Of a stretch of DNA of 64,000 bases, positions 2,697 to 19,487 are shown piece by piece (the first letter of the stretch is position 1; every line of letters starts with the position of its first letter). The stretch spans positions 113 to 64,112 of the forward strand of contig DAOTWS010000176.1 in the NCBI GenBank assembly GCA_034436195.1, given 5' to 3'. The notes under the pieces were generated by a model. That model had not been told where the DNA came from, did not search any database, and worked only from the letters and a program-made list of their open reading frames with translations. This DNA is from Anaerolineae bacterium (lineage in GTDB: Bacteria > Chloroflexota > Anaerolineae > Promineifilales > Promineifilaceae). The position numbers were made by a program, and so were the translations under genes.

Positions 2697-3344
2697 TTGG
2701 AAGTGTCTATGCTGTCAAAGACCGGGAAAATGCGTTGGTCGTCATGGTGGTTGTTTACGGGACTCATGATGATCTTTATAACGCTAGCAGAATTGTTTGA
2801 ACACAAAATGGTTAGCCCGTCCTGGTCTCGCTTTTTGTTGATGACTGAACTGATAGTCAGTGGTGTGGTTATTCCAATGGCATTGGGAGTTGTGTTGAAT
2901 GAGTTGGTAATGGTGAAGGGGCGGGTAATGAGAAAGAAAAATGAGATGGGAAAAACGGCCGTTTCTCCCCCCAAGGTTTTGCTAATTGGCAACGCCTCCC
3001 TCCTGGGTGCCAGCCTGGAACAACTCCTTTGCCAAAAAACCCATTTCCAAATCACCACTATCTCCGCCCCGGCCACACCCAAAGATCTCCTTCAGCAAAT
3101 CAGTCAATACCAGCCAGACACCCTTATCATCAACACCGACCAGATACCAATTACCCCTCAAGTGCTGGCAATTCTGCAAAAACGTTCCCGCTTACGCATG
3201 CTGGCTGTCCAGGGAGAAACCAATGAAATTCAAATCTATGAAAAAGAAACGCTCCCAATCCACAGTACGGCCGATTTCATCCAAAAGTGCAACATCAAAA
3301 CGGCCACTTCCGAATCAAAAAAGGAGGAAAGTCAATGTGAATGA
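2697..3344 (+). CDS. membrane protein: 2-TM module paralogous to the kinase N-terminus, plus a degenerate receiver-like domain
   Basis: TM module ...LAELFEH...GVVIPMALGVVLNEL resembles the kinase ...LTFEIIEH...GVVFPVLFGLLFDLL. The C-terminal part reads VLLIGNASL...PDTLIINTD...LAV, which is receiver-like but lacks the acidic pair. The TTG at 2697 or the ATG at 2709 could be the start. Confidence 0.6.
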   Translation: MEVSMLSKTGKMRWSSWWLFTGLMMIFITLAELFEHKMVSPSWSRFLLMTELIVSGVVIPMALGVVLNELVMVKGRVMRKKNEMGKTAVSPPKVLLIGNASLLGASLEQLLCQKTHFQITTISAPATPKDLLQQISQYQPDTLIINTDQIPITPQVLAILQKRSRLRMLAVQGETNEIQIYEKETLPIHSTADFIQKCNIKTATSESKKEESQCE

Positions 3345-3398: not shown

Positions 3399-6300
3399 AT
3401 GAATGCACAAACAACCATACATACAAAAACAGTTCCTCTGCGTCGGCTCTGGTTAAGCCGACTCATGTTCGTTCTCCTCCTGCTGATTTTGGCACTATTT
3501 GGCTCACAACGTGCCGTCAAATCAGCCTCTACCATTACTCTCGAAGTACGCGAATATGTACCTGGCGCACCTCCTGGTACCGGCCCCCTCATCACCACCT
3601 ACGCCTATCTGGTCAATGAAGATAACACCGGCGATCCATTTGATCCGGACCCTGCCAAACATCCCTCCCTGAAACCAATGGCCAGTTACAGTCCAGTGGT
3701 AGCCATGGGAGACGATACCAGCTCATCGCTTACACTCGATGACGGCCGTTACCTCATCTCCGTTCGTGCCGACGGCTACAAAATGGGAGGCAAACACATT
3801 CGCCTGCCAGACGACTCCGGCACAGTAATCATTGAACTCGTCCCCGAGCCCCTTCCCCTCTCCAAAATCCGCGTTCACGTCTTCCATGACAACAACCCTG
3901 TTAACGGCGAAGACGACATCCCCCGTGAAGAAGGACTCGAAGGATTTCGCGTCATTATCGAAGACGGATCCGGCGAAGTCACCGTAGACTGGTTTGGCAA
4001 CCCACTCTGTACTCAATACGATGGCAACCCCAACGGCAGCACCCCCTTGGGCGACCCCATCCCCGGCACAGGCGGTATTTGCTACACCGACGCCAACGGC
4101 GATCTGGTCATCCCAAACCTGGGCCGCAACAAATACGAAGTCATCGCCATACCACCCGATGGCCAGGAAAACGACTGGATCCAAACCACCACCATCGAGG
4201 GCACTCACGTTATCGACGCATGGGTTGAAGAAGGAAACACAGGCTACAGCCCCCGAGAAGGCTTTCAACAAGCAATGGTCTGGATTGGCTTCGTCCAGCG
4301 ATGCACCTTCGGAGATCCCAACGACACTTGTCCAGCCAACGATACGCCCGGCTCAGGCACAATCATGGGAACCGTCAAAACTGTCATCGAATGGATTCCA
4401 CCCACAGCCCCCCTAATCCTCGGCGATCCCGTAGATCGCCCCTGGATAGCTCTGACAGACATCGGCGGAACCGACCAACAAGTTTATCTGGGGCGAGGCA
4501 ATCCAGATGGCAGTTTTGTTATCAACAATGTCCCTGATGGTGTCTACCAGCTTGTTGTTTGGGATGAACCACTGGATTACATCATCTCTTTCTTCACCGT
4601 TACCGTTGACAGCAGTGTAAACGGTGGCGTCGTTGATATGGGAGAATTTGGAATCCCACGATGGTATGGCTGGATTTCCGGCTATGTATTTTTGGATGAA
4701 AATCGAAACGGCATCAAAGATCCAGGCGAACCGGGTATTCCTCGTGTTGATCTGGACACACGATTCCGTGACGGTTCGATCCAATACACAACTGTAACTG
4801 ACGAAAACGGCTACTACGAATTCCCCGAAGTCTTCGAGTTAGAAAAGTTTGCTGTTGCTGAAGTAGGATTCGGCCGTATGGGGACCAGTGGCGCATCTGT
4901 CCATGATGAATACAACACCAACCTCATCAAATCTGTCCATCCGGATGTCCTTACTCTGGCCGAATTAACGTGGGCAGCCAAGCGGAGCATTATTGATTGG
5001 GGCAAATTCAACTATTTGCCTGGCGAAAACGGCGGCATATCCGGAATCGTTTACTACGCCACAATGCGCAACGAAACAAATGCCCAACTTGCAGCCGCAG
5101 AAGATTATGAACCGGGCGTTCCCAATGTCACTGTTCGTCTCTACGACGAAACCGGCACTATCTTGCTTAACGAAACTCAAACTGATGCCTGGCAGCATCC
5201 AACCAATTGTGATTATCTGGATGCAAATGGGTTGCCCGTTCCTGATCCGCTAGATCTCGGTCCAAAGTGCGTAGAAGTTCCCAACATATCCAATGAAGTT
5301 AAGGATGGTGTGTTTGATGGTGGCTACGCGTTCAATAGTTACTGGACACCATACTATGGTGCGCCAGGAGCAACAGAAGTAACAGGATTGCCGCCAGGGA
5401 ACTATGTTGTTCAGGTTGTGCCCCCTCCATTCTTTAAGGTGCTGGAAGATTCTGATGTGAACACGTCGGATGGAAACCAGGTAACCCCAAATGGGCCAGC
5501 TATTAACATTCCCGCAGCAGGCTGTTCTGGTGGAGACTGCTCCAAACGCATTGTTACTTTACAAGAAGGACAAAATGCGGCGGCAGATTTCTTCTTGTTA
5601 ACGGAAAATGCCGTGCCCATTCCAGGTCGAATTTTTGGCTTCTTGCTGGATGACCTGAATATCGAAACCGATCCCAACTTTATTTACTACGGTGAGAAGC
5701 GGGGGATTCCGTTCACGCCTGTAGGAATTCGGGATTTTACTGGTCGGCTAATCACTACAGTGTATTCGGATGAGAATGGTATTTTTGAGGTGTTGCTCCC
5801 ATCCACTTTTGTGGCAAATTGCCCAACACCAGGCGGTGTTTGTCCAGCTATTTATCATGTAGTGGGCAACGATCCGGGGGATCCAGGTAATCCTAACCCT
5901 GGCTATAACCCCAATTATCAGACATTGACGTTTACATTTGATGTCTGGCCGGGTAAGACAACGTATGCCGATGTGGCGTTGTTCCCTATTACTGCATTTA
6001 CTGCTGGTGGAGGGGGGCAGTTTAACCAACCGGCGCAATGTAATTTGCCGGATGGTACACCTGAGTTATGGGCAGTATCTCAGCCTTATGGCAGTGTCGG
6101 GGATTCGTTTACGATTACCGGTGTGAATTTTGGGGCGACACAGGGGAGTGGTTCTGTAACGATTGATGGTGTGCCGTTGTTGGTAAATTCGTGGTCGGAT
6201 ACGCTGCTGGATGTCACGATTCCTCCGGGATTTTCTGCAGGGGCGGGACAGTTGATGATTACGGCCGATAATGGTCTGAGTACGGTCAATGGGTTGACGT

Positions 6301-8261
6301 TCCACGTGTTGGGAATGGGTTATAACCCAACTGTTGTTAATGTGTATCCTGATCCAAATCCCGCGGCTACCCCGATTCAGAATGCTATTGATGCGGCTTT
6401 TGGGAATACGCTGATTGTAGTAAATCCGGGTGTTTACTATGAGAGTATTACGCTGAATAAGGGGCGTGTGAAGTTGCAGGGCGTTGGGCCAGGTGAGCCA
6501 ACGTTGGGTACAGGCGGCTCGGTATTGGATGAACGGTTTGCAGTGGAAAGTATTATTGTTACCGGTGCACCTAATACGTTTGGGCCGCTGTTTAATCCGC
6601 AAATTGATGGATTTAAGATTACAGGTGGACGTGATCAGCAAGATGTTGGTGGCGGGTTGCATGTAGATGTAAACGGCCGTTATCTGGAAATCAGCAACAA
6701 CATCATCCAAAGCAACGGCGGCAACTTCGGTGGCGGCATCACCATTGGCGAACCATATCGGGGCGACAACAACAACGACCGCATCCGCATTCACCATAAC
6801 CGTATCCTCAACAACGGCGGCATCAGCCTGGCCGGTGCTATCGGCATCTTCAATGGTGCCAACCAGTACGAAATCGCCTACAACGAAATTTGCGGCAACT
6901 ATTCGGCCGAGTACGGTGGTGGTATCTCTCACTTCGGTCTCAGTCGTCAGGGCAGCATCCACCACAACAAAATCTACTACAACAATGCCTTTGATGAAGG
7001 TGGTGGCATCCTGATCGCTGGTGAACAATTCTTCAACCCCGAAAATCCAAACGAACCAGCACCTAACCTTACCGTTGGATCTGGCGAAGTGGACATCTAC
7101 AACAACCTGATTCAATCCAACCTGTCCAATGACGATGGGGGCGGTATCAGGCTCTTACAGCCCTGGGACTACAGAATCCGCATCTTCAACAACATTATCG
7201 TAAACAATGTCTCCACTGATTTTGGCGGTGGCATTGCCCTCGACGATGCCTCAGACGTTCTCATCATGAACAATACGATCGCCAAAAACGTCAACACTTC
7301 CACTGCCGAAGACTCAGACGGATTACCACACGCCGCTGGACTAACAGCCGAGGCTTATAGCACCCAATTCACCAACTATCTGGTAAATACCTATGGCTCA
7401 GCTGCTCCTGGTTTCCCCGATCCAGTCATGTTCAACAACATTTTCTGGGAAAATCAGGCTTATACCTGGGATGGCCTGCAACTGGTATTTAACAGCATCA
7501 TGGACATGGAAGTGTTTGGGACGATTACACCTGCCTCTTTTACCGGTCATCCCAGCAACATGATCGGTGTCAACCCACAGTTTGTATCACCTTATGATAC
7601 GGTATTGGATGCAGTAGCCTTCCGCATGGAGCCAAACTTTATCACTGTGGTATATGTGACAGTTGATCTGACGGCCGCTTTGCCGGGCAACTATCATCTG
7701 ACAGGTGGTTCTCCAGCTGTTGATGTAGGTGTGTCTTCACTGGGGCCAATTGCTGCCCCGGCAGATGATATTGATGGTGAATCCAGACCACAAAATGGCC
7801 TGTTTGACGTTGGCGCAGATGAATTGACAGGAACACCGCCGCCGCCACCACCAACACCAACGCCACCACCACCGACACCCACACCATTACCCACGCCTAC
7901 GCCCCCACCCACACCGACACCACCACCGCCAGCAGGCTGCACAACAAATTGTCTGCGTGTGACAAGTATTGATTTGACACCATTTGTGCGTGGTAATAAC
8001 GGCCGTGTTCGGGCAGTCATCACCGTACGCGATGAAAACAACATACCAGTAGAAAATGCACGCGTATATGTCACCTGGACATTGCCCAATACCACTACCC
8101 CCCTCACACTAAATGAAGGCACAAACGGACAAGGACTTGTGCGCTTCATGGCAGAAGATGGATTAGGCACTTACACCATCACAATTGATGACATCACACT
8201 AGGAGGCTACACCTTTGACACAACCAATAGCGTACTAAGTGCGACCATCACCATACCATAA
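3399..8261 (+). CDS. 1620-aa secreted multidomain protein: SdrD-B/CarboxypepD_reg-like beta-sandwiches, IPT/TIG, right-handed parallel beta-helix (PbH1) repeats, Pro/Thr linker, C-terminal beta-sandwich
   Basis: - N-terminal hydrophobic signal/anchor.
- GYVFLDENRNGIKDPGEPGI...TDENGYYEF (SdrD-B-like).
- FTITGVNFGATQGSGSVTIDGVP...LTFHV (IPT/TIG).
- Repeated NNxIxxNxGxxGGGI beta-helix turns.
- DIDGESRPQNGLFDVGADE tail.
- A PT-rich linker. Confidence 0.85.
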   Translation: MNAQTTIHTKTVPLRRLWLSRLMFVLLLLILALFGSQRAVKSASTITLEVREYVPGAPPGTGPLITTYAYLVNEDNTGDPFDPDPAKHPSLKPMASYSPVVAMGDDTSSSLTLDDGRYLISVRADGYKMGGKHIRLPDDSGTVIIELVPEPLPLSKIRVHVFHDNNPVNGEDDIPREEGLEGFRVIIEDGSGEVTVDWFGNPLCTQYDGNPNGSTPLGDPIPGTGGICYTDANGDLVIPNLGRNKYEVIAIPPDGQENDWIQTTTIEGTHVIDAWVEEGNTGYSPREGFQQAMVWIGFVQRCTFGDPNDTCPANDTPGSGTIMGTVKTVIEWIPPTAPLILGDPVDRPWIALTDIGGTDQQVYLGRGNPDGSFVINNVPDGVYQLVVWDEPLDYIISFFTVTVDSSVNGGVVDMGEFGIPRWYGWISGYVFLDENRNGIKDPGEPGIPRVDLDTRFRDGSIQYTTVTDENGYYEFPEVFELEKFAVAEVGFGRMGTSGASVHDEYNTNLIKSVHPDVLTLAELTWAAKRSIIDWGKFNYLPGENGGISGIVYYATMRNETNAQLAAAEDYEPGVPNVTVRLYDETGTILLNETQTDAWQHPTNCDYLDANGLPVPDPLDLGPKCVEVPNISNEVKDGVFDGGYAFNSYWTPYYGAPGATEVTGLPPGNYVVQVVPPPFFKVLEDSDVNTSDGNQVTPNGPAINIPAAGCSGGDCSKRIVTLQEGQNAAADFFLLTENAVPIPGRIFGFLLDDLNIETDPNFIYYGEKRGIPFTPVGIRDFTGRLITTVYSDENGIFEVLLPSTFVANCPTPGGVCPAIYHVVGNDPGDPGNPNPGYNPNYQTLTFTFDVWPGKTTYADVALFPITAFTAGGGGQFNQPAQCNLPDGTPELWAVSQPYGSVGDSFTITGVNFGATQGSGSVTIDGVPLLVNSWSDTLLDVTIPPGFSAGAGQLMITADNGLSTVNGLTFHVLGMGYNPTVVNVYPDPNPAATPIQNAIDAAFGNTLIVVNPGVYYESITLNKGRVKLQGVGPGEPTLGTGGSVLDERFAVESIIVTGAPNTFGPLFNPQIDGFKITGGRDQQDVGGGLHVDVNGRYLEISNNIIQSNGGNFGGGITIGEPYRGDNNNDRIRIHHNRILNNGGISLAGAIGIFNGANQYEIAYNEICGNYSAEYGGGISHFGLSRQGSIHHNKIYYNNAFDEGGGILIAGEQFFNPENPNEPAPNLTVGSGEVDIYNNLIQSNLSNDDGGGIRLLQPWDYRIRIFNNIIVNNVSTDFGGGIALDDASDVLIMNNTIAKNVNTSTAEDSDGLPHAAGLTAEAYSTQFTNYLVNTYGSAAPGFPDPVMFNNIFWENQAYTWDGLQLVFNSIMDMEVFGTITPASFTGHPSNMIGVNPQFVSPYDTVLDAVAFRMEPNFITVVYVTVDLTAALPGNYHLTGGSPAVDVGVSSLGPIAAPADDIDGESRPQNGLFDVGADELTGTPPPPPPTPTPPPPTPTPLPTPTPPPTPTPPPPAGCTTNCLRVTSIDLTPFVRGNNGRVRAVITVRDENNIPVENARVYVTWTLPNTTTPLTLNEGTNGQGLVRFMAEDGLGTYTITIDDITLGGYTFDTTNSVLSATITIP
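7831..7936 (+). repeat. Pro/Thr low-complexity linker coding repeat
   Basis: Encodes GTPPPPPPTPTPPPPTPTPLPTPTPPPTPTPPPPAG from CCN/ACN-rich degenerate repeats. Confidence 0.8.
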
Positions 8262-8352: not shown

Positions 8353-9657
8353 ATGAACAAGAAAAAACAACCACCCAAACTAAATCGGCGACAATTTCTG
8401 CGCCTGGGACTGGGAGGTGGCGGTGCATTGGTACTAACAGCAGCCAGTGTGCTGGCACGGGCGGACAAGCTACGAGAACTGGCAGCAACAAGTACGGCTT
8501 CTCAAGTGGCTGCACCAGTTGCCCCTGAGCCAGCAGCCTCTACTGTTGTACAGGGCACAAATATTCGGCTGGCCGCTACGGATGGGCACATTTTGCTGCC
8601 AGGCAGAACACGGCCGTTATACACTTTCGGTTTTGTCGAAGCCGATCCTAACGCCTCAATTCGAGATGTCATCGCCGCCTACAAAGGCAAAGTGCAAATG
8701 TGTTCCCCTATTCTGGATGTGAATGAAGGGGATGAAGTGTATCTGACTCTCACCAACCTGGGATTCCAATTCCGCCCAGATTTGGACGATTCTCACACCA
8801 TTCACTGGCATGGTTTTCGCAATCCAGTTGCCATTTTTGATGGTGTGCCAGAAGTATCCATCGCTGTGCCGGTTGCCCGAAACTTTCCCTACTTCTTCCA
8901 TCCCGAACATCCGGGAACATATATGTACCATTGCCATTTTGAGGATGTGGAACACGTACAAATGGGGATGAATGGTATTGTGTTTGTTCGCCCCTTACAG
9001 AATAACGGAACAGGCAGTTTGCCCCCAGGCAAATATTGTTACAACGACGGGGATGGCTCAACAGCATACGATCGGGAAGTGACGCTGATGTTAAATGAAA
9101 TTGATACCCGTCCTCACGACTTGCTGGAAGAGGTACAAGATTTTGTCTGGTCAGATTATAAGCCGAATTACTGGATCATAAACGGCCGTGCCTATCCGGA
9201 TACCATCAAGCCCAGCAACGACCCATCCCTGCCCTACCAGCCCATTTCGTCACTTATTCAGGCAAATCCCGGCGAAAAAATCCTGTTACGCTTCGCCAAC
9301 CTTGGCTATGAACAACACGCCATGCAATTAACCGGCATTCCCATGAAAGTAGTTGGGCACGATGCAACGCTGCTACGCAGCCCTGACGGTTCAGATCTCA
9401 GCTACTATACGAACACCATTTACATTGGGCCTGGAGAGGCACGCGATGTCATCTTCGAAGCACCGGCATTTGATCCCACAGCCGAAACTGGCACAGACAG
9501 CATAGGAACTTACAACGTCTACCTGCTAAAAAACCGGAACTATTTCGCCCAGACAAACGACGGATTACCAGGACTTGGCGGCATGGTTACAGAGGTGCGC
9601 GTTTATAACGGTTCACCTCTGCCCCCACAAACCAAGCCAAACGAGACATTTACATAA
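8353..9657 (+). CDS. two-domain multicopper oxidase paralogue A: Tat signal; domain 1 has a full T1 site plus two HxH pairs; domain 2 has no ligands
   Basis: RBS GGAGG before the ATG at 8353. Tat motif NRRQFLRLGLGG. HTIHWHG at 8794-8814. YHCHFEDVEHVQMGM at 8926-8970. Domain 2 reads GYEQHAMQLTG where HxxHxH is expected. Confidence 0.85.
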   Translation: MNKKKQPPKLNRRQFLRLGLGGGGALVLTAASVLARADKLRELAATSTASQVAAPVAPEPAASTVVQGTNIRLAATDGHILLPGRTRPLYTFGFVEADPNASIRDVIAAYKGKVQMCSPILDVNEGDEVYLTLTNLGFQFRPDLDDSHTIHWHGFRNPVAIFDGVPEVSIAVPVARNFPYFFHPEHPGTYMYHCHFEDVEHVQMGMNGIVFVRPLQNNGTGSLPPGKYCYNDGDGSTAYDREVTLMLNEIDTRPHDLLEEVQDFVWSDYKPNYWIINGRAYPDTIKPSNDPSLPYQPISSLIQANPGEKILLRFANLGYEQHAMQLTGIPMKVVGHDATLLRSPDGSDLSYYTNTIYIGPGEARDVIFEAPAFDPTAETGTDSIGTYNVYLLKNRNYFAQTNDGLPGLGGMVTEVRVYNGSPLPPQTKPNETFT

Positions 9658-9704
9658 TCAGAAGTGGGTACAAAACTCTCTTCCGATAAAAGGAGTGGCA
9701 AACG

Positions 9705-10979
9705 ATGTCTGTAAAAGTGAAAAAACACGCCAGGCCCGGCATTTTACTATTCAGCCTGATTCTACTGGCAATGATTGTGCTGGTGGGATTTGGGGGCAGA
9801 GTACGACGTGCCGCAGCAGCTGGCAGTACAACGATGGTTTGCACCTATGGCCCAACATTTGATTTGCGAACTACCGACGGGTACACCAGCACCCCTGATG
9901 GCAATAGCCTGTACTATTGGGGGTTTGCAAATATGAATGATGGTTTGGGTGGCGCATTTCAACAACCTGGTCCTGTACTTTGTGTCAATGAAGGGGACAC
10001 AGTGGTTATAAATCTGCAAAATGATTTAACCGAACCGGTTTCTATTGTGTTTCCAGGACAGGAAGGAGTCACAGCAACTGGAGGTGTGCCAGGCCTGCTA
10101 ACAGCAGAAGCTCCCCCAGGAGGCAGTGTGACATACACTTTTGTGGCGACTGCCCCAGGTACGTATTTGTATGAAAGTGGTACAGAACCGCATAAACAGG
10201 TGCAAATGGGATTGTTTGGGGCGCTGGTTGTGCGTCCGGCTATGGGAGCAAATTTTGCTTATAATGACCCGACCACAGAGTTTAATCCGGATCGGGAATA
10301 TTTGTTGCTGATTCATGATGTGGATCCGGAGTTGCATTATGCAGTGGAACATGGTTTGCCGTATGATGTGACGACGATGCATGATCGGTATTGGACGATA
10401 AACGGCCGTTCCTTCCCCGACACTATCGCCCCCAACTTCGCCCCCTGGTTACCAAACCAACCTTATGGCGCACTCGTCCGCATCGAACCATACGATGCCA
10501 CCAACAACCCCCTACCAGCGCTTGTACGATATGCAAATGCCGGTATGGTCAACCACCCCTTCCATCCACACGGCAACAACCTGACTATTATTGGCCGAGA
10601 CGGCCGTTTACTCCGTGGTCCTAACGGCGAAAACACCTCCTTCGAAAGCTTCACCACCACCGTTGGCTCCGGACAAACTTTCGACCTCCTGGCCCAATGG
10701 TTCGACGTCGAAGCATGGAATCAAAACAACAACCCCATCCCCGTACAACTCCCCGGCCTCTACAACCTGGTCACCAAAGACGGCGCCACCTTCTACAGCG
10801 GCAGCCCCTACCTGGGCCAAAAAGGTGACCTGCTAGTCGGCAACACCTCCTATAACGAATGTGGCGAATTCTACTTCCCCTGGCACAGCCATGCCCTCAA
10901 CGAATTTCAAAACTTCGATGAAGGCTTCGGCGGTCTGGCAACCCTCTGGCGAATCGATCCGCCCGGCGGATGCCAATAA
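9705..10979 (+). CDS. two-domain multicopper oxidase paralogue B: domain 1 has no ligands; domain 2 has HxxHxH and HSH (no T1 Cys)
   Basis: RBS AAGGAG and an N-terminal signal/anchor. Domain 1 reads VSIVFPGQ and YESGTEPHKQVQMG in place of ligand motifs. HPFHPHG at 10554-10574. WHSH at 10881-10892. Confidence 0.85.
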   Translation: MSVKVKKHARPGILLFSLILLAMIVLVGFGGRVRRAAAAGSTTMVCTYGPTFDLRTTDGYTSTPDGNSLYYWGFANMNDGLGGAFQQPGPVLCVNEGDTVVINLQNDLTEPVSIVFPGQEGVTATGGVPGLLTAEAPPGGSVTYTFVATAPGTYLYESGTEPHKQVQMGLFGALVVRPAMGANFAYNDPTTEFNPDREYLLLIHDVDPELHYAVEHGLPYDVTTMHDRYWTINGRSFPDTIAPNFAPWLPNQPYGALVRIEPYDATNNPLPALVRYANAGMVNHPFHPHGNNLTIIGRDGRLLRGPNGENTSFESFTTTVGSGQTFDLLAQWFDVEAWNQNNNPIPVQLPGLYNLVTKDGATFYSGSPYLGQKGDLLVGNTSYNECGEFYFPWHSHALNEFQNFDEGFGGLATLWRIDPPGGCQ

Positions 10980-10993
10980 GAAGGAAGGGTCCG

Positions 10994-12952
10994 ATGAAAA
11001 AGGAGAAACTTCCCATGCGTACAAAAATAACAACCATTCTCAGCTCAGGGCTCATTCTGTTACTACTCATGCTGGCATTAGGTAATACACCCTGGCAACC
11101 ACACACCATCAGTGCAGCCCCAGCCCCCCTCCAACCCAGCCCCTCACAACCCACTCCACTTACACCAATGGCTGCCCCAACCACAATCAACATCGAACTA
11201 TGCGCCAAAGCAGGCAACACAACCATGCCTGACAATACCACCATTCCCATTTGGGGATACGCCCTAAAGCCCGCCAACACACCCTGTTCGGACAATTCCG
11301 TAACAGCCAGCCTGCCAGGTCCTGTTATTGAAGCCACAACAGGAGACACACTCAATATCACTTTATACAACGAGCTACCCGAAGCCACCTCCCTCCTGTT
11401 CCCCGGACAAGACGAACCTCCCGATATGACCGGCATTGCTCCCGGTAGTACCAAAACTTACAGCTTCACAGTAACTCGTCCGGGCACATTCCTCTATGAA
11501 AGTGGCGTCAATTCAGCCATTCAGGTTGCCATGGGGCTATATGGAGCCCTCATTGTTCACGACACCACCCCTGGACAGGCCTACGCCAGCCCCGAAACCG
11601 CCTACGATACAGAGGCTGTTCTACTCCTGAGCGAAATAGATCCCAACTTAAATGCCGATCCAGCCAACTTCAACTTGCTGGATTATAAACCGCTCTACTG
11701 GCTGATAAATGGCAAAGCTTATCCAGATACAAACCCAATTGATGCCGATCCGGGAGAACGAGTACTGTTGCGGTATCTGAACGCTGGATTTACTAACGAC
11801 ACAATGATGATTCTAGGCACACACCAGAAACATATCGCCAGCGATGGGTATCCGTTAAACTTTCCTGTTGATATGGTGGCATATACTATCCCGGCAGGAC
11901 AAACGGCCGATCTCATTGCCACCATGCCTCACAACCTCGATGGTGGTCAACTTGCCTTGTACAATCGCCAACTTCACATCACCAATGGAGATGCCACCAG
12001 CACTGCCCATTTTCCCGGCGGCATGATGACATTCATCAACATTGCCCCATTTGTCAACTTTAATAACTACACCCTGGCCAGCTATGGCGGCACACAAGAT
12101 GCCGCGGCCACAGCTACCATTGAAGACAATGGCGCCACCTTGCACCTGGTAGGCAACGGTTGGAAAAAGATCCCCTTCCCCTACACCGTCACTCCCAACA
12201 CTGTTATCGAATTTGACTTTATGAGCAGTGTTCAAGGAGAAATTCACGGGATTGGCTTTGACAACGATGACGTTATCAACAATCCCATTCAGATATTCCA
12301 GGTGTATGGCACACAGGGTTGGGGCATCCAAAACGCCAGCTTTAACTATGCCGGTAGCGCACCGAACTGGGTACGCTTTTCTATCCCGGTTGGGCAATTC
12401 TATACAGGCACAATGACTGATCTGGTGTTTGTCATGGATGATGATGCCGCAGCCGCCGGAGAAAGTCTGTTCCGCAATATCAAGGTGTATGAAGCCCCAC
12501 CGCTCATGGTGAATGTGAATGGAACACCATATGCAGTGATGTCTTACGGAGGTTCGCAGGATGTGGGGGCATTGGTCAGTGTGGAGAATGGTGGTGACAC
12601 GTTGCGTATTACCGGCAATGGCTGGAAGAAAGTGGCTTTTGCCTACACTGTCACCCCCAACACAGTACTGGAATTTGACTTTGAAAGCAATGTTGAAGGT
12701 GAAATACATGGTATTGGCTTTGATACAGATGACAATATCAGCAGTAACCTGACTTTCCAGTTGTACGGCACGCAAACGTGGGGATTGCAAGCGTTTCATA
12801 CATACACGGGTAGTGGGGTGCAGCATTTTGTTGTTCCGGTAGGTAACTACTATACCGGCAGTATGTTGTATCTGACTTTTACGAATGATGATGATGCGGC
12901 TGCTGCTGGCGAAAGTGTGTTTAGCAATATCCAGGTCTATGAACAACCGTAG
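10994..12952 (+). CDS. ligand-less MCO-fold paralogue C fused to two tandem ~150-aa beta-sandwich-like domains
   Basis: Same cupredoxin scaffold (GPVIEATTGDTLNITLYN, GTFLYESG...AMGLYGALIV, YWLINGKAYPDT, LLRYLNAG) but no HxH/HCH motifs. Signal peptide present. The start is ATG 10994 (RBS GGAAGG) or ATG 11015. Confidence 0.8.
   Translation: MKKEKLPMRTKITTILSSGLILLLLMLALGNTPWQPHTISAAPAPLQPSPSQPTPLTPMAAPTTINIELCAKAGNTTMPDNTTIPIWGYALKPANTPCSDNSVTASLPGPVIEATTGDTLNITLYNELPEATSLLFPGQDEPPDMTGIAPGSTKTYSFTVTRPGTFLYESGVNSAIQVAMGLYGALIVHDTTPGQAYASPETAYDTEAVLLLSEIDPNLNADPANFNLLDYKPLYWLINGKAYPDTNPIDADPGERVLLRYLNAGFTNDTMMILGTHQKHIASDGYPLNFPVDMVAYTIPAGQTADLIATMPHNLDGGQLALYNRQLHITNGDATSTAHFPGGMMTFINIAPFVNFNNYTLASYGGTQDAAATATIEDNGATLHLVGNGWKKIPFPYTVTPNTVIEFDFMSSVQGEIHGIGFDNDDVINNPIQIFQVYGTQGWGIQNASFNYAGSAPNWVRFSIPVGQFYTGTMTDLVFVMDDDAAAAGESLFRNIKVYEAPPLMVNVNGTPYAVMSYGGSQDVGALVSVENGGDTLRITGNGWKKVAFAYTVTPNTVLEFDFESNVEGEIHGIGFDTDDNISSNLTFQLYGTQTWGLQAFHTYTGSGVQHFVVPVGNYYTGSMLYLTFTNDDDAAAAGESVFSNIQVYEQP
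12053..12949 (+). repeat. internal tandem duplication (about 456 nt + 441 nt) encoding two copies of an uncharacterised domain
   Basis: VN(F/V)N...SYGG(T/S)QD...GNGWKK...YTVTPNTV(I/L)EFDF...GEIHGIGFD.DD...YGTQ.WG.Q...DDDAAAAGES.F.NI.VYE occurs twice. About half of the positions are identical by eye. Confidence 0.85.
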
Positions 12953-13028
12953 CAGGGGATAAGTGGTGAATGACCGGTCGGCGGTTGTGGATAGCTGGCC
13001 GGTCATTCTAATCAAAGGGGTAAATTTT

Positions 13029-13526
13029 ATGCATGAAGTGTCTTTGAGTGTGCATGGGAGAAAACGGCCGTTTTCCTTCACAATGTTACTTTTTCTCGCC
13101 CTGATTCTGGCTCTGGTTGGTTTACTTATCTGGATGGCCGTGACTCAATTCGGTCATATCATAACCGGCAACCGCCCCCAATCTGCTGCTGAGTTACCTC
13201 AAACAACCTTTACCGAAGCAACTGGTGTCCGTATTATGCTGGTAGCCATCACAGCCGGCGGCGGTATGATCGACCTTCGCTATCAGATTGCCGATCCGGA
13301 CAAGGCTGTTATTGTGCATGATGAAGAAAATCCCCCCACAATTATTGACGAACGCACTGGCAAAGTGATCTCCCGCCCCTGGCACGATCACGCTCATGAC
13401 CAGGATTTACATACGGCCGTTACCTATTACGAACTCATCCTCAACCCCGATGGTCTCATTCGGCCTGGCCAAACCGTCACCATACGCATTGGCAATGCTG
13501 AACTCAAACATGTCCCGGTACAATAA
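13029..13526 (+). CDS. membrane-anchored hypothetical protein with a His-rich patch (WHDHAHDQDLH)
   Basis: One TM segment (MLLFLALILALVGLLIWMAV) followed by a ~110-aa soluble domain. It sits between the MCO genes and copC. I recognise no family. Confidence 0.55.
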   Translation: MHEVSLSVHGRKRPFSFTMLLFLALILALVGLLIWMAVTQFGHIITGNRPQSAAELPQTTFTEATGVRIMLVAITAGGGMIDLRYQIADPDKAVIVHDEENPPTIIDERTGKVISRPWHDHAHDQDLHTAVTYYELILNPDGLIRPGQTVTIRIGNAELKHVPVQ

Positions 13527-13540
13527 CAAAAGGGGGAATC

Positions 13541-14059
13541 ATGACCCGCAAAATCCTGTATCTGGTTCTTTTGCTTCTGGCACAAATGATCATCTCACCT
13601 TTTGCTTATGCTCATTCTGTCAAATTACTACGGTCTGATCCGCCAGATGGCGCCCATCTGGATTCATCGCCAACGGTCATCAGAGCCTGGTTCAACGAGG
13701 AACTGGACGCCAGCAGCACAATGCGTGTGTTGGACAGTACAGGGGGGCAAGTGGATAACGGCGATGGTGGACTTGACCTGACAGATCCAGATCACGCCTC
13801 TATGAAGGTAACTGTGCCTGTACTCATTGATGGTGTTTATACGGTTTCGTGGCGGGCAGTTTTGGTAGATGGGGATGTTACGACTGGCGTGTTTCATTTT
13901 ACGGTAGGAACGCCACCAGCAACAACCAGTTTGACTCAATCTATGCAGGCAGAAGATGAAACGGCCGTTTCCCTGCCGGTACTTCTGGCCATCGGCGGCT
14001 CCATTCTGATACTGATAGCAGGATTGTGGCAATGGCAATCTTCAAGGAATCAAAAATGA
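13541..14059 (+). CDS. copC: CopC-domain copper-binding protein with a C-terminal TM anchor
   Basis: Signal ...FAYA|HSVKLLRSDPPDGAHL... gives a mature N-terminal His. CopC core YTVSWRAVLVDGDVTTGVFHFTV has DGD where DGH is usual. RBS AAGGGGG. Confidence 0.8.
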   Translation: MTRKILYLVLLLLAQMIISPFAYAHSVKLLRSDPPDGAHLDSSPTVIRAWFNEELDASSTMRVLDSTGGQVDNGDGGLDLTDPDHASMKVTVPVLIDGVYTVSWRAVLVDGDVTTGVFHFTVGTPPATTSLTQSMQAEDETAVSLPVLLAIGGSILILIAGLWQWQSSRNQK

Positions 14060-15996
14060 GCAAATCCCCCCTGAAATTCACACTTGTTCTCACAATGATT
14101 CTACTCCTTTTTGCCTTCATACCCACGCCGCCTGTCGCCGCCCATGCAATACTGGCTCGATCTGAACCAGCTGACAACGCAATTTTATCTGAACCACCCA
14201 ACCAGGTACGTCTCTGGCTCACCGAACCCATCAGCCCGGAATTTAGCACAGCACAACTGCTGGACGTTACCGGCACGGCCGTTCCCCTGCGCGGCATTCG
14301 CACTGTTCCCAACGAACCCAATCTGCTTATCCTGGATCTGCCACCTCTGGAAGAGGGAGTTTATAGCGTATGGTGGAAGGTGCTTTCTCAAAGTGACGGT
14401 CACTTTACGCAAGGGCTCATCGTTTTTGGCATTGGCACAACAGCTGACCTAAACCAGGCACAAGCAACCATCCCTAAAACGGCCGTTCCCTGGCCTGAAG
14501 TCGCCCTGCGCTGGGCCAATTTCACCATCTTGCTCCTTCTGATAGGTTCCTTAACCATTCTCGCATTTCTTCTGACCCCACCCGTCTCCCCCCCCACAAT
14601 TGTTACCACCTACCAACAAGCACGTCAGCGGGCGTGGCGGCTGGCCTATATGTGTGCCATTAGTGGGTTAGGGCTTGGAATTGGCTGGATAATGTGGCAA
14701 ACGGCCGTTTTGCGCCCCGAACTTCCCCCTACCACCCCCATTTGGACCATTGCCAGCCAATGGCTTACCCAAAGCCGCCCCGGCCTCCTCTGGATTGCAC
14801 GTCAGACCATCTGGCTTGCATTCATTCTCTCCCTGTGGCGAATTAACCGCAACCACCTTCCCAGTCCATCCAGCCCCTTGCCCCACCTGTTACTCCTGCT
14901 CACCTTCCCCCTCATCCTCACCCAATCTCTTGTCAGTCATGCGGCAGCCCTCACCACCAACACCACTTTAGCTATCATAACCGACAGCCTTCATCTGCTT
15001 GCCGCTGCCCTTTGGATAGGCAGTTTATTGGCCTTGCTAATGACCCTGTTGCCGCCAGCCAGACAAAATAAAAATCACTTGCGGTCTTTACTTCAGTCAG
15101 GATGGCAACCATTTGGGCGTTTGGCTGCCTTGAGCATAGGCATCCTCGCCGCCACCGGCCTATACAGTCTGGGACAACAAGTTGCCACACCCGACGCCCT
15201 ATTGTTGACCAATTACGGCCGTTCTCTGTTCCTCAAAACCCTGCTTCTGCTCCTCACTCTCAGCTTCGGCGCACTCAACGCCATCCTCCTGCATCCCACC
15301 CTTGCTGCCATCCCCGCCCGGCTGCTACGCCGCCCTCAGGGATGGACACCCCTTTCATGGCGCTGGCTGCCTCGCCTCATGCTCATTGAAGCCACACTTG
15401 GCCTCGGCGTTATTCTACTCACCGCCTATCTAACAGCCGCCCCCAACGCCAGCCAGGCTCCCACCCCGCCTGAAGAAATCCCCACTACAGCCACCCAGCT
15501 TGTTGACGATATGCTGATAACGCTCTCCATCAAGCCAAATCGGCCTGGTGCAAATGTCATGAACATCCGCGCAGTAAGCACTCGTCGGCCTGCCCCGGCT
15601 GAAGTTTTGCGCGTCATTGTGCGATTTACCTACCTGGAACAAGATCTGGGGATAGAATCGGTAGTAGCAGAAGCTACCAATGAACCAGGATTGTATCGGC
15701 TTGGCGGTAACCAGCTTCGCCTGCCTGGCCGCTGGCAAATAGATGTGGTGGTGCGCCGCATGGGAATAGCGGATGCGGTGGCTCGCTATGAATGGACATT
15801 GCCCGAAGCACAATCTTCTGACCAGCCACTAATCTCTAACAAGCAATGGGCACCCTGGTTAACTATTGGTGCTATGTTGATGTTGCTGGCTACGTTGGCA
15901 GGAACGGCCGTTTATGTCTGGCACAACCACCAGCAACCCGTATCCCATCTGGCCCAACAAACAGTGAAGATTCCTCCTGATTTTTCAGATTGGTGA
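14056..15996 (+). CDS. CopC-CopD fusion membrane protein (YcnJ-like copper transport/resistance)
   Basis: AAHAILARSEPADNA...YSVWWKVLSQSDGHFTQGLIVFGIG is a CopC domain. Multiple CopD-type TM helices and a C-terminal beta-domain follow. The ATG at 14056 overlaps the copC stop (ATGA). Confidence 0.85.
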   Translation: MSKSPLKFTLVLTMILLLFAFIPTPPVAAHAILARSEPADNAILSEPPNQVRLWLTEPISPEFSTAQLLDVTGTAVPLRGIRTVPNEPNLLILDLPPLEEGVYSVWWKVLSQSDGHFTQGLIVFGIGTTADLNQAQATIPKTAVPWPEVALRWANFTILLLLIGSLTILAFLLTPPVSPPTIVTTYQQARQRAWRLAYMCAISGLGLGIGWIMWQTAVLRPELPPTTPIWTIASQWLTQSRPGLLWIARQTIWLAFILSLWRINRNHLPSPSSPLPHLLLLLTFPLILTQSLVSHAAALTTNTTLAIITDSLHLLAAALWIGSLLALLMTLLPPARQNKNHLRSLLQSGWQPFGRLAALSIGILAATGLYSLGQQVATPDALLLTNYGRSLFLKTLLLLLTLSFGALNAILLHPTLAAIPARLLRRPQGWTPLSWRWLPRLMLIEATLGLGVILLTAYLTAAPNASQAPTPPEEIPTTATQLVDDMLITLSIKPNRPGANVMNIRAVSTRRPAPAEVLRVIVRFTYLEQDLGIESVVAEATNEPGLYRLGGNQLRLPGRWQIDVVVRRMGIADAVARYEWTLPEAQSSDQPLISNKQWAPWLTIGAMLMLLATLAGTAVYVWHNHQQPVSHLAQQTVKIPPDFSDW

Positions 15997-16136: not shown

Positions 16137-18572
16137 ATGCCAGAAAAAACAACCAAATTAACAACCGGTTTATTATCCATGCTAATAGCTGGCTTACTCC
16201 TCCTGGCAGCCATTACCTTCACCACCGCCATTGGCCAAACCGCCTCCCTCTCTCCCTTCGCCATCTCAGATCCCATCAACTGCACCAATGCCTCTTCTCC
16301 CGTAGCCGCTTTTGAGATTTCTCGTGGCCAATCCCCTGATGACTACACGACGTTCCTTAATGAACTTGTCTCTTTCGGCTACACGGTCGGTACAGTCGAT
16401 CTTTCTGCCGGAACAATTCCCTCTTGCGTGGACATCCTCATCATCATGGGGCTGGCAGGCAACAATCGCCTGTCCTCACCCTATACAACCACCGATGCTA
16501 CTATGCTTCGCAATTGGGCGGCGGCCGGACATGGCTTGATGATCTCCAGCGATTGGGGCTTTCTAAAAGGAGACACACAACCTCTTTTTCAGGAATATGG
16601 ATACACGTTGCTGGGAGATGACGCCGTTATTGATCCAACAGATGCTGATCCGTCCGGGCCTAATAATAGCTGGGTTATTTATCAGGTCGATAATTTCGGC
16701 ACACATCCTATTTTTGACGGCGTTACAGCATTTGAAATGCTCCGCAGTGCGTGGCTTACCCCAGCCACAAATGCGTTGGTAATTACCGATGCTGATGCTA
16801 ATCCAGCTAACATGCCGGTAATGGCAGCGTTTCGTGATGGCTCAGGTTGTGTTTTGCTGGCAACAGATAGTAACTGGCTGGGGGAGTTTAGTAATGCCTA
16901 TGCCTTGCAAGATAATACTCGCGCCGGACGACAGGCGGTGGCATGGCTGACGGGTTGTGTGCGCTTGCGCCTGACGAAAACGGCCGATCTGAATCCCGTC
17001 CCCGCCGGAAATTTGCTTCGCTATACAATCACAGCATCTAACTTTTACACGGACACTCTCACTGGCATTACCATTACCGACACGATTCCAGCAGGCACTT
17101 CTTTTGTCGCCGCCAGTTCTCCCTTCTCTGGTCCGGATGCTAATGGGGTTGTTACGTGGAATGTGGGGACGCTTCTTTCAGATAATTCAGCCGTAGTTAC
17201 TCTGACAGTGCGGGTAGATGCTGGTCTGGGGGCAGGAACGACTATTCTTAATACAGCGTATGTAGCAAGTAACGAGGGATTAACAGATTCGGCCGTTTTG
17301 CTGGTTGATGTCTCCAATCCACCTACGCCTACACCCACACCGACTTCTTCTCCCACACCCACATCTACGCCCACCTCTTCGCCTACACCCACACTTACCC
17401 CAACAGCTACCCCAGAGAGAATCACGGCCAATGCCGGGGGGCCATACACTATCACAGAAGGAAGCAATGTCACTCTGGACGCAAGCAGTTCGTTTGATCC
17501 AAACGGTGGAAGTCTGAGTTATGCCTGGGATTTGGACAACGACGGCCTGTTTGATGATGGCACGGCCGTCACTGTCGTTTTTTCGGCAAGCAATCGAGAT
17601 GATGGCGTTTATCCTGTCTCAGTGCAAGTAACAGGCAACACCGGTTCAGCGACAGATACAACTACCGTGACAGTGAACAACGCGATACCACAAGTGACAC
17701 TCATGGCTGATAGCTGGGATGTACTGATAGGAGAAACGGCCGTTTTTACCGGCACATTCACCGATCCCGGCACCCTCGACACCCACACAATCCTTTGGAA
17801 TTTTGGAGACGGCGCCACCGCCAACGACACACTCACCGCCAGCCACACCTTCAATCAAACCGGTCAATACCTCATTACCCTTACCATCACAGACGACGAC
17901 GGTGGCGTAGGGCAGGCTACGGGCACAATGAACGTCACAACTCCGCCAACCCCCAGCTTTGTTTTTCTGCCAGTCGTCCAGCTAAATTACTGCATTCCCA
18001 CCAGCCACCCGGCCGACATCATTCTGTTACTCGATTCATCTGGCAGTATGGCTAACCCGACAAGCAGCGGCAACACCTCCAGACTGGCCGCCGCACAAGC
18101 TGCTGCTACCGATTTCCTCAACATTATCAATCTGCCACCGGATCAGGCCAGCATAATCGATTTTGACAGTGAAGCACGGGTGCTTGCCCCCCTTACTTCC
18201 GATCGAGCTGCGCTAATTGCGTCTTTGCAATCATTGGTAGCTGAAGGACTGACACGCATCGATCTGGCATTGGCAACAGCCAGACAAGAGTTGAGTAGTG
18301 GGCGTCATAACCCTGCGCACACGGCCGTTATCATTCTGCTCACCGACGGCAAACCCTTTGGCGTAGGCGAAGAACCAGTTATTGCCGAAGCCAATGCTGC
18401 CAAAGCTGCTGGCATCATCATCTACACCATTGGCCTGGGAGATAGCATCAACGAAACCTTGCTCAAAACCATTGCCACTGACCCGACTCATTTTTATCAC
18501 TCACCCACAGCAGACGATTTAAGCCAGATTTATGCAGAAATCGCCGGATTTATCAGTTGTCCGGGCAATTAA
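16137..18572 (+). CDS. secreted multidomain protein: N-terminal alpha/beta domain, DUF11-like repeat, PT/ST linker, two PKD domains, vWA domain
   Basis: - Signal peptide.
- LTKTADLNPVPAGNLLRYTI...DTIPAGTSFV (DUF11-like).
- SYAWDLDNDG and ILWNFGDG (PKD).
- ADIILLLDSSGSMAN...LTDG...YTIGLG (vWA MIDAS). Confidence 0.85.
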   Translation: MPEKTTKLTTGLLSMLIAGLLLLAAITFTTAIGQTASLSPFAISDPINCTNASSPVAAFEISRGQSPDDYTTFLNELVSFGYTVGTVDLSAGTIPSCVDILIIMGLAGNNRLSSPYTTTDATMLRNWAAAGHGLMISSDWGFLKGDTQPLFQEYGYTLLGDDAVIDPTDADPSGPNNSWVIYQVDNFGTHPIFDGVTAFEMLRSAWLTPATNALVITDADANPANMPVMAAFRDGSGCVLLATDSNWLGEFSNAYALQDNTRAGRQAVAWLTGCVRLRLTKTADLNPVPAGNLLRYTITASNFYTDTLTGITITDTIPAGTSFVAASSPFSGPDANGVVTWNVGTLLSDNSAVVTLTVRVDAGLGAGTTILNTAYVASNEGLTDSAVLLVDVSNPPTPTPTPTSSPTPTSTPTSSPTPTLTPTATPERITANAGGPYTITEGSNVTLDASSSFDPNGGSLSYAWDLDNDGLFDDGTAVTVVFSASNRDDGVYPVSVQVTGNTGSATDTTTVTVNNAIPQVTLMADSWDVLIGETAVFTGTFTDPGTLDTHTILWNFGDGATANDTLTASHTFNQTGQYLITLTITDDDGGVGQATGTMNVTTPPTPSFVFLPVVQLNYCIPTSHPADIILLLDSSGSMANPTSSGNTSRLAAAQAAATDFLNIINLPPDQASIIDFDSEARVLAPLTSDRAALIASLQSLVAEGLTRIDLALATARQELSSGRHNPAHTAVIILLTDGKPFGVGEEPVIAEANAAKAAGIIIYTIGLGDSINETLLKTIATDPTHFYHSPTADDLSQIYAEIAGFISCPGN
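17319..17413 (+). repeat. Pro/Thr/Ser low-complexity linker coding repeat
   Basis: Encodes PPTPTPTPTSSPTPTSTPTSSPTPTLTPTATP. Confidence 0.8.
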
Positions 18573-18680
18573 GCCTCTGGATTTGCCGGTATCTGTGAAA
18601 CAGACATTTACATTCAGGCAGGAATCAGCTAAAGTACCTGTATATTGCCAACTACTTTAGCCAGACAAGGAGGAGGATTC

Positions 18681-19487
18681 ATGCCTGTAACGCATCGCCT
18701 GGTGCCAGAACGGCCGATTCGACTGACCGAATTACCCACTCGTGGCCAATCGTTTTACCCGGCCGGCAAGGAAGCTGCCAAAGCGGAATTTCGCGCCTTG
18801 CGGAAAGAACTGGCCGAATTACAATACCGTTTTTATGCAGACGGCCGTTTTCGACTACTCATCATCCTGCAAGCCATGGATGCGGGCGGCAAAGATGGCA
18901 CAATTCGGCGTGTGTTCCAGGGTGTCAATCCACAAGGTGTGCGGGTCACCTCCTTCAAAGTCCCCAGCAAAGAAGAACTCGCCCACGATTTTCTCTGGCG
19001 TATTCACAAAGCAGTACCCGGCAACGGCATGATTGGCATTTTCAACCGTTCCCATTACGAGGATGTTTTAGTCGTTCGTGTGCACAATCTAGTGCCCGAA
19101 TCTGTTTGGCGGCCTCGCTACGAACAAATCAACCAGTTTGAGAAAATGCTCACCGAAACCGGCACAACCATTCTCAAGTTCTATTTGCACATCTCCAAAG
19201 AAGAGCAAAAGCAACGTTTTCAGGAACGTGTGGATAATCCGGAAAAACATTGGAAGTTTTCGCATGATGATTTGAAGAAGCGAGCTTTGTGGGATGCATA
19301 TATGGCAGCCTATGAAGAGGCCTTAAACCGGTGTACAACCCCCTGGGCACCGTGGTATGTTATTCCGGCAGACCAAAAATGGTATCGTAATCTGGCAATT
19401 GCCCGCGTGATTGTGGATACTATCAAGCAATTAGACCCTCAGTTTCCACCACCAGAAGGGGATTTAAGCCAGGTAGTTATTGAATAA
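18681..19487 (+). CDS. ppk2: polyphosphate kinase 2 family protein
   Basis: LLIILQAMDAGGKDGTIRRVF...VPSKEELAHDFLWRIHKAVPGNGMIGIFNRSHYEDVLVVRVH. RBS GGAGGAGG before the ATG at 18681. Confidence 0.9.
   Translation: MPVTHRLVPERPIRLTELPTRGQSFYPAGKEAAKAEFRALRKELAELQYRFYADGRFRLLIILQAMDAGGKDGTIRRVFQGVNPQGVRVTSFKVPSKEELAHDFLWRIHKAVPGNGMIGIFNRSHYEDVLVVRVHNLVPESVWRPRYEQINQFEKMLTETGTTILKFYLHISKEEQKQRFQERVDNPEKHWKFSHDDLKKRALWDAYMAAYEEALNRCTTPWAPWYVIPADQKWYRNLAIARVIVDTIKQLDPQFPPPEGDLSQVVIE

Follow-up and report, generated by a model that had tools for sequence, protein, structure and literature searches.

Three tandem genes in a 64,000-nucleotide stretch of DNA from an Anaerolineae bacterium (Chloroflexota; assembly GCA_034436195.1, contig DAOTWS010000176.1, positions 113 to 64,112; this whole stretch is called the window below) encode paralogous two-domain multicopper oxidases (MCOs) over which the ligands of what appears to be a single catalytic centre are divided. 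Protein A (434 amino acids; 8353-9657, + strand) carries a complete type-1 (T1) copper site and one half of a trinuclear cluster in its domain 1, protein B (424 amino acids; 9705-10979, + strand) carries the other half in its domain 2, and protein C (660 amino acids; 10970-12952, + strand) keeps the same scaffold with no copper ligand at all. Two-domain oxidases are trimers in which residues of two protomers coordinate the trinuclear cluster, and the only form described as of 2026 is a homotrimer whose three centres are identical (PMC13151041). Because the cluster is shared between protomers and its ligands are split here between two genes, no homotrimer of A, B or C could build it; only a contact between A-domain 1 and B-domain 2 can. 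We consider it likely that A and B share one catalytic centre, and probable, with distinctly less assurance, that the three proteins close into an A:B:C ring in which the A-domain 1/B-domain 2 interface holds the sole T1/trinuclear centre and the other two interfaces are dead. To the fullest version of this model, an obligate 1:1:1 non-covalent six-domain MCO with copper-free interfaces, a giant beta-helix partner at the cell surface and its own chaperones loading copper extracellularly, we give roughly even chances.

Copper ligands of A, B and C

A pattern scan over one genome per GTDB species found a relative of A in at least 393 species. The best 80 of these 393 loci, taken with 10-kb flanks, are the base for the conservation and synteny counts given below, and the ligand pattern of the triad was counted on the 72 genomes in which A, B and C are all readable. 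The sampled Chloroflexota loci come from Anaerolineae, Caldilineae, Ardenticatenia, Roseiflexaceae and Thermoflexus, and the sampled Actinomycetota loci from Kribbella, Micromonospora, Actinoplanes, Dactylosporangium, Cellulomonas, Streptosporangium, Nonomuraea, Solirubrobacter and others; two odd bins are also among the 80.

All three proteins match the Cu-oxidase Pfam models PF07732 and/or PF07731 above curated cut-offs, which places them in the multicopper oxidase superfamily, and no further MCO genes were found within the window. Among solved structures, the type-C two-domain oxidases 2ZWN and 3G5W come closest to them, and NirK-type proteins come next. Two cupredoxin domains are covered by alignments or models in each protein (target-normalised template modelling (TM) scores of 0.64-0.76 against 3G5W/2ZWN), the models of B and C match cupredoxin structures with a probability of 1.00, and MAFFT puts the three paralogue families on one alignment block. 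Against the NCBIfam models for CopA, CueO, laccase, ascorbate oxidase and NirK, A, B and C all fall far under the cut-offs; copper_res_A is the top NCBIfam match for each of them, at about one tenth of its cut-off. Identity with CopA/PcoA was rejected on TIGR01480 scores of 50-65 bits (cut-off 479, domain 1 alone matched), and identity with NirK on TIGR02376 scores of 33-40 bits (cut-off 296), A having the oxidase-type HWH and HCH motifs.

Protein A, whose ATG at 8353 is preceded by GGAGG, was delimited as an open reading frame (ORF) with Pfam support for two cupredoxin domains. Its HTIHWHG motif (8794-8814, + strand) supplies T1 His148 and cluster His151 and His153, and its YHCHFEDVEHVQMGM motif (8926-8970, + strand) supplies His193-Cys194-His195, His201 and Met206. 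Domain 1 thus holds the T1 ligands His148, Cys194, His201 and Met206, in the spacing Cys194-x6-His201-x4-Met206, together with the trinuclear-cluster histidines 151, 153, 193 and 195. In phmmer alignments to 2ZWN and 3G5W the first motif stands opposite an identical HTIHWHG, and YMYHCHFEDVEHVQMGM stands opposite WYHCHVNVNEHV..RGM. Domain 2 of A reads QHAMQLTG opposite IHAMHSHG of 2ZWN, so that just the first, non-cluster histidine is kept, and it has no HxH anywhere. The eight ligand columns of A are HHHHCHHM in 80/80 genomes. A preliminary description of this DNA, made by reading the letters and their translations, had already assigned A a full T1 site and two HxH pairs in domain 1 and none in domain 2; the motifs and coordinates that it quoted for A and B are exact on translation, and its assignment for A stands both on translation and on alignment to 2ZWN/3G5W. 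The N-terminal T1 site that marks type-C two-domain oxidases occurs in A alone, B and C having no T1 site. The Tat (twin-arginine translocation) signal that was proposed for A is likewise upheld, with RR at residues 12-13 and a twin-arginine motif in 77/80 orthologues, the Pfam TAT match of A itself lying under the cut-off.

Between the T1 cysteine and histidine of A, Glu197, Asp198 and Glu200 (8941-8952) are invariant in the 80 orthologues, a region in which 3G5W and 2ZWN read V-N-V-N-E; these acidic residues (197-200) may form a candidate site for a cation substrate.

Protein B, an ORF with Pfam support and an N-terminal hydrophobic helix, is the mirror image of A, as the preliminary description had it. 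Its domain 1 is ligand-free, reading VSIVFPG at the first motif and Y-E-S where H-C-H is expected, and its domain 2 holds the cluster histidines 287, 289, 394 and 396. The first pair belongs to the motif HPFHPHG (10554-10574, + strand) and the second to WHSH (10881-10892, + strand), whose place comes from the hhalign comparison of the three families. Built from 57 B homologues, a profile sets NHPFHPHGN opposite HAIHTHGH of 3G5W and HAMHSHGH of 2ZWN, the four cluster columns of B domain 2 are HHHH in 78/78 ungapped sequences, and 68 columns are invariant among the 57 homologues. His284, at the vestigial T1-His position, is histidine in 71/79. The serine of the HSH had been taken for a replaced T1 cysteine, and this claim we drop: type C carries T1 in its N-terminal domain (PMC13151041), so that a central cysteine would be expected in domain 2 only if that domain bore the T1 site, and the serine is no sign of a lost one, a correction that follows from the family definition and not from a residue alignment. 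B also has four conserved cysteines, 46, 93, 386 and 423, as the pairs 46/93 and 386/423.

The AlphaFold2 model of B (mean pLDDT, the predicted local distance difference test, 76.5) superposes best on 2ZWN/3G5W, with target-normalised TM scores of 0.64-0.71. Residues 394-413 are the most conserved stretch of the protein, with H394, H396, A397, E400 and E406-G410 invariant, and are modelled with less confidence than any other part of the monomer (pLDDT 32-49); as a softer point, such low values would be expected of a segment that becomes ordered only against A and copper. The start of B at 9705 has AAGGAG upstream of its ATG, and this longer form is on record (P0121); one NCBI record (P0122) gives B as 381 amino acids, starting 43 codons downstream and omitting the hydrophobic N-terminal helix.

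Protein C was delimited as an ORF whose start overlaps the end of B by 10 nucleotides. Its core (residues 1-360; 10970-12049, + strand) comprises a membrane helix, a Pro-rich tether and two cupredoxin domains with zero copper ligands; translation finds no HxH and the hhalign map agrees, so that the ligand-free scaffold described earlier for C holds. The AlphaFold2 model of C has a mean pLDDT of 86.2 and matches 3G5W best (TM 0.76, root-mean-square deviation 2.4 Å), and the protein has a conserved cysteine pair (78/106).

These assignments were put on a common map by hhalign profile-profile alignment of the three families from the 80 genomes (probability 100%). At the first domain 1 motif, SHTIHWHGF in A aligns with PVSIVFPGQ in B and ATSLLFPGQ in C, and at the second, YHCHFEDVEHVQMGM aligns with YESGTEPHKQVQMGL and YESGVNSAIQVAMGL. 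At the first domain 2 motif the three read EQHAMQLTG, NHPFHPHG and NDTMMILG, and at the second KNRNYF, WHSHAL and YNRQLH, each in the order A, B, C. The only HxH pairs of the triad are A151-153, A193-195, B287-289 and B394-396; C has none. Type-C oxidases have eight histidines per chain; here the domain 1 half is found in A and the domain 2 half in B, and C lacks both. Profile alignments to the type-C oxidases and among the three families, a check akin to the structure-based alignment that the preliminary description had proposed, therefore bear out its ligand assignments. That each paralogue might prove self-sufficient was its own counter-case, and none of the three has a full ligand set.

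Conservation and gene order across genomes

The claim that four plus four histidines come together only when A-domain 1 is combined with B-domain 2 held in the 72 readable genomes from two phyla. Zero histidines occupy any dead ligand column in 67/72; the remaining 5/72 have one isolated histidine at a dead column, never an HxH pair, and a second half-site is restored in 0/72. Judged by sequence, the complementary split is not a product of chance, for the survey for the same triad in other genomes that had been suggested finds it in all 72 that have three readable genes. The residues that replace the ligands are themselves conserved. Dead domain 1s carry Tyr-Glu/Gln-Ser (B Tyr156 100%, Glu157 89% and Ser158 99%; C Tyr176 100%) and dead domain 2s carry Asn-Arg (A Arg395 96%, C Arg333 85%).

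Across the 80 species-level genomes of the two phyla the gene order is a giant protein (~1600-1900 amino acids), A, B, C and a small protein, with gaps just at contig ends or in frameshifted assemblies, and a CopC-CopD gene usually adjoins the cluster or sits within 10 kb. The junctions are tight: A and B overlap by 8 nucleotides in 41/78 loci, B and C by 4 nucleotides in 41/75, and the giant protein and A by 4 nucleotides in 25/78, a pattern expected of co-translated subunits. B and C are mutual closest paralogues (hhalign E 1.6e-88, versus ~1e-56 to A). Their kinship suggests a stage consisting of A and an ancestral B' that would have occupied two ring positions, followed by a duplication into B and C and the loss in C of domain 2 ligands that had become useless. 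No single-chain fusion of the triad was found among 360 listed relatives or the 80 loci.

Proposed assembly

Counted by ligands, each A:B:C set has room for exactly one cluster. Of the three domain 1s one is live and two are dead, and the same holds for the three domain 2s, as a 1:1:1 ring requires. In the model that we favour, A, B and C would each contribute one subunit to a single three-subunit, extracytoplasmic multicopper oxidase of the two-domain kind. If the A1/B2 contact is fixed, the six cupredoxin domains would follow one another in the ring as A1-A2-C1-C2-B1-B2, and the other interfaces would pair dead halves only, B-domain 1 with C-domain 2 and C-domain 1 with A-domain 2, both copper-free. 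At the catalytic interface, A-domain 1 would provide the T1 copper and His 151, 153, 193 and 195, and B-domain 2 would provide His 287, 289, 394 and 396; electrons would pass from the substrate to the T1 copper and on through Cys194-His193/195 to the trinuclear cluster, where O2 would be reduced to water. The dead interfaces are probably joined through the Tyr-Glu/Gln-Ser of one domain facing the Asn-Arg of the other, a Glu/Gln-Arg contact that may stand in place of the copper cluster.

The predicted export routes differ within the triad. A would be exported folded by Tat, and B and C by way of ordinary hydrophobic N-termini, with their conserved cysteine pairs. Since A is thus a probable Tat substrate and its partners are not, the cluster at their interface would be loaded with copper extracellularly, a route that we infer, and CopC, CopC-CopD and a small membrane protein with a Met/His motif, all encoded just downstream, may aid the loading. 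The copper-handling neighbours and the invariant Glu197, Asp198 and Glu200 near T1 hint at a metal cation, which is our best guess for the substrate, with Cu(I), Fe(II) and Mn(II) as the options. Acidic residues near the T1 site are a mark of ferroxidases.

The tail of C offers a further hint that B and C belong to one particle. Two extra C-terminal domains had been noted in C, and the AlphaFold2 model bears this out, showing two tandem beta-sandwich domains of ~150 amino acids each at residues ~365-660 (tail 12050-12952, + strand). The tail has no match in the Pfam copy searched, and its domain is also found on M28, M12 and S8 peptidases. Among Chloroflexota orthologues of C the tail is variable, being made of PKD, DUF11, cadherin-like, dockerin or tandem beta-sandwich domains. 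In the Actinomycetota (loci L006-L070, for example L045 at 11118-13139) it is B that has a C-terminal extension, of ~246 amino acids and with no Pfam match, and C is short (~320 amino acids). An accessory module that sits on C in one phylum and on B in the other would seem to be interchangeable between them, and such swapping is easily understood if B and C share one particle.

Alternative explanations

The ring that the preliminary description proposed agrees with all the computational tests that we ran and is contradicted by none of them, the assembly itself being a prediction. Several points nevertheless weigh against it. The mutual binding of A, B and C and their 1:1:1 stoichiometry are things that we infer, and C is given its place by co-occurrence, retention of the scaffold and parity. 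Inter-protein covariation (normalised mutual information over motif columns in the 72 genomes) does not raise the predicted-contact pairs above controls, its signal being dominated by the split between Chloroflexota and Actinomycetota, so that it says nothing either way. The model of B is of moderate confidence (mean pLDDT 76.5), and the HSH of B owes its place to family alignment and chain position rather than to a residue-level superposition on a solved structure; the HMMER profile match of B to a solved structure ends short of this C-terminal motif, which leaves it outside direct structural alignment. Both the substrate and the part played by the copper-handling genes are guesswork. Moreover, A His255 (~9115-9117) and B His211 (~10335-10337), equivalent residues at the start of domain 2 that are histidine in 97% of A and 99% of B sequences and absent in C, are not canonical copper ligands and find no explanation in the ring model.

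The strongest competing account accepts the single A and B centre but completes the ring with A or B taken twice (e.g. A:B:B), leaving C as a separate surface anchor or adaptor. C does indeed diverge most (39-58% identity, versus ~50-70% for A and B), it has few conserved residues, and its variable add-ons are of the adhesion type. Yet it retains the whole two-cupredoxin scaffold in a high-confidence model (TM 0.76 to 3G5W), is found in every locus with sufficient flank, is translationally coupled to B, and in place of its ligands has the residues that also mark the dead domains of A and B; an A:B:B ring, for its part, would bring the live half-site of B-domain 2 face to face with B-domain 1, which is dead. 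We regard this account as unlikely. Less likely again is that the proteins act separately in a copper-homeostasis operon, A as a blue-copper carrier or NirK-like enzyme and B and C as copper-binding or structural cupredoxins of the FtsP/SufI kind. Copper-free MCO-like proteins do exist, SufI/FtsP are among the sequence matches and NirK structures among the best matches, and CopC/CopCD adjoin the triad. On such a reading, however, the four invariant histidines of B-domain 2 would have no partner in B domain 1, nor the four of A-domain 1 a partner in A domain 2, and exactly complementary halves that are invariant over two phyla are hard to explain unless they pair; the NCBIfam scores for NirK (33-40 bits, cut-off 296) and CopA (50-65 bits, cut-off 479) argue against the named identities as well. 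As for B and C being functionless, decaying duplicates of A whose complementarity is an accident of one genome, ligand loss is all that speaks for it. The 68 invariant columns of B among 57 homologues and the start/stop overlaps between neighbouring genes contradict decay, and because 72+ species keep all three genes intact and in synteny we consider it ruled out.

Comparison with known systems

The single-centre A:B:C ring has its nearest counterpart in the type-C two-domain oxidases, the blue copper oxidase of Nitrosomonas europaea (3G5W) and the metagenomic mgLAC (2ZWN). These too have two cupredoxin domains, and they share with the triad the HTIHWHG and YHCH...EH...M motifs in domain 1, HxxHxHG in domain 2 and an N-terminal T1 site, which is placed in that domain in type C by definition (PMC13151041). 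In type C the cluster forms where domain 1 of a chain meets domain 2 of its neighbour, the layout that we propose here. However, type-C oxidases are each made from one gene, as homotrimers whose three centres are identical, whereas the ligands of the triad lie over two genes and the third is ligand-free, so that a ring would have at most one centre and no subunit would be self-sufficient. The only two-domain oxidase called a 'heterotrimer' in the literature searched is Nmar_1354 of Nitrosopumilus maritimus (PDB 9CCK), an alpha-alpha-alpha' assembly that arises when proteolysis removes an extra cupredoxin domain from the product of a single gene and that, unlike the triad, keeps three copper interfaces. 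That no heterotrimeric two-domain MCO had been described, as the preliminary description supposed, agrees with our finding no heteromeric or heterotrimeric two-domain oxidase from separate genes in this literature, which is incomplete in coverage and lacked most subscription papers.

The overall plan may also be likened to that of ceruloplasmin, hephaestin and MnxG, six-domain rings with one trinuclear cluster at one of three equivalent interfaces and the other two degenerate. Those proteins are single polypeptides, whereas the triad consists of three ORFs with their own starts and export signals, and its sequence affinity to them is no closer than superfamily. The T1 sites of ceruloplasmin lie in its even-numbered (domain 2-type) domains, unlike the T1 site of the triad, which is in a domain 1-type domain. 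Activated factor VIII/V (A1/A2/A3-C1-C2) is analogous in another respect, being a non-covalent set of three two-cupredoxin units of which one bears two C-terminal beta-sandwiches, and Foldseek does align full-length C over ~700 columns to the factor V and factor VIII light chains (A3-C1-C2), at an overall TM of 0.33. Factors V and VIII, unlike the triad, are non-catalytic animal cofactors cut from one precursor, and because the tail of C varies among its orthologues we take the likeness to be convergent, an analogy only. In gene content the locus resembles the CopABCD/PcoABCD operons, where a multicopper oxidase likewise occurs with CopC and CopD, but CopA/PcoA are single-chain three-domain oxidases, and the triad locus has no CopB and adds giant secreted and small Met/His-motif proteins.

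In the classical scheme ceruloplasmin and factor V/VIII derive from trimeric two-domain ancestors, and the triad is a natural test case for the loss of two of three centres. If our reading is correct, one centre split over two gene products and accompanied by a scaffold paralogue would be a new arrangement in a long-studied class, and the triad would stand as a living intermediate, with homotrimeric two-domain oxidases on one side and six-domain proteins of a single centre, ceruloplasmin among them, on the other, implying that two of the three centres can go before, or without, gene fusion. There would be practical consequences as well. Thousands of database entries of the B and C types named 'multicopper oxidase' would have no oxidase activity possible on their own, and laccase-mining screens that demand all four motifs would miss the whole system. 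At least 393 species-level genomes contain the cluster, and many of these belong to culturable soil actinomycetes (Kribbella, Micromonospora, Actinoplanes, Cellulomonas).

Neighbouring genes

Two members of the cluster had escaped the preliminary description. The larger, a giant secreted protein of 1620 amino acids (3399-8261, + strand) with SdrD-B-like, TIG and right-handed beta-helix regions, lies directly upstream of A in 78/80 loci, and is a probable fourth partner of the triad. It has a column identity of 0.6-0.7 over residues 100-1480 in the two phyla, conserved cysteine pairs, and weak sub-threshold matches to NosD-like/beta-helix and 'choice-of-anchor Q' models; a PDB sequence search with it gave no match. 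The other is the small membrane-anchored protein between C and CopC (ORF of 187 amino acids; 12963-13526, + strand; true start probably the ATG at 13029), which follows C in ~70 loci. Its extracytoplasmic domain has a conserved Met/His-x-His-x-His (141-145), His119-Asp120 and His183, and belongs to no family in Pfam or NCBIfam; these residues make it a candidate extracellular copper chaperone.

The adjacent CopC and CopC-CopD genes, which had been thought to fit copper delivery, are confirmed by Pfam/NCBIfam as a CopC-domain protein of 172 amino acids (13541-14059, + strand) and a CopC-CopD fusion membrane protein of 656 amino acids with YcnJ-like architecture (14026-15996, + strand), and a copper-handling role for them is plausible. 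A CopC-CopD homologue occurs within 10 kb in most loci. Upstream of the cluster lies a two-component system (259-2469, + strand) made of a GAF/HisKA_3 kinase (259-1662) and a NarL-type regulator (1819-2469), which possibly regulates it. Such systems adjoin many loci, their type varies, with many HisKA-type kinases instead, and none of those beside the cluster is of a copper-specific type.

An unannotated membrane ORF (2697-3344, + strand) also lies upstream of the cluster. Downstream of CopCD is an 811-amino-acid DUF11/PKD/VWA surface protein (16137-18572, + strand), which has a homologue in that position only in locus L001 and probably stands outside the core cluster; it is followed by a PPK2 gene (18645-19487).

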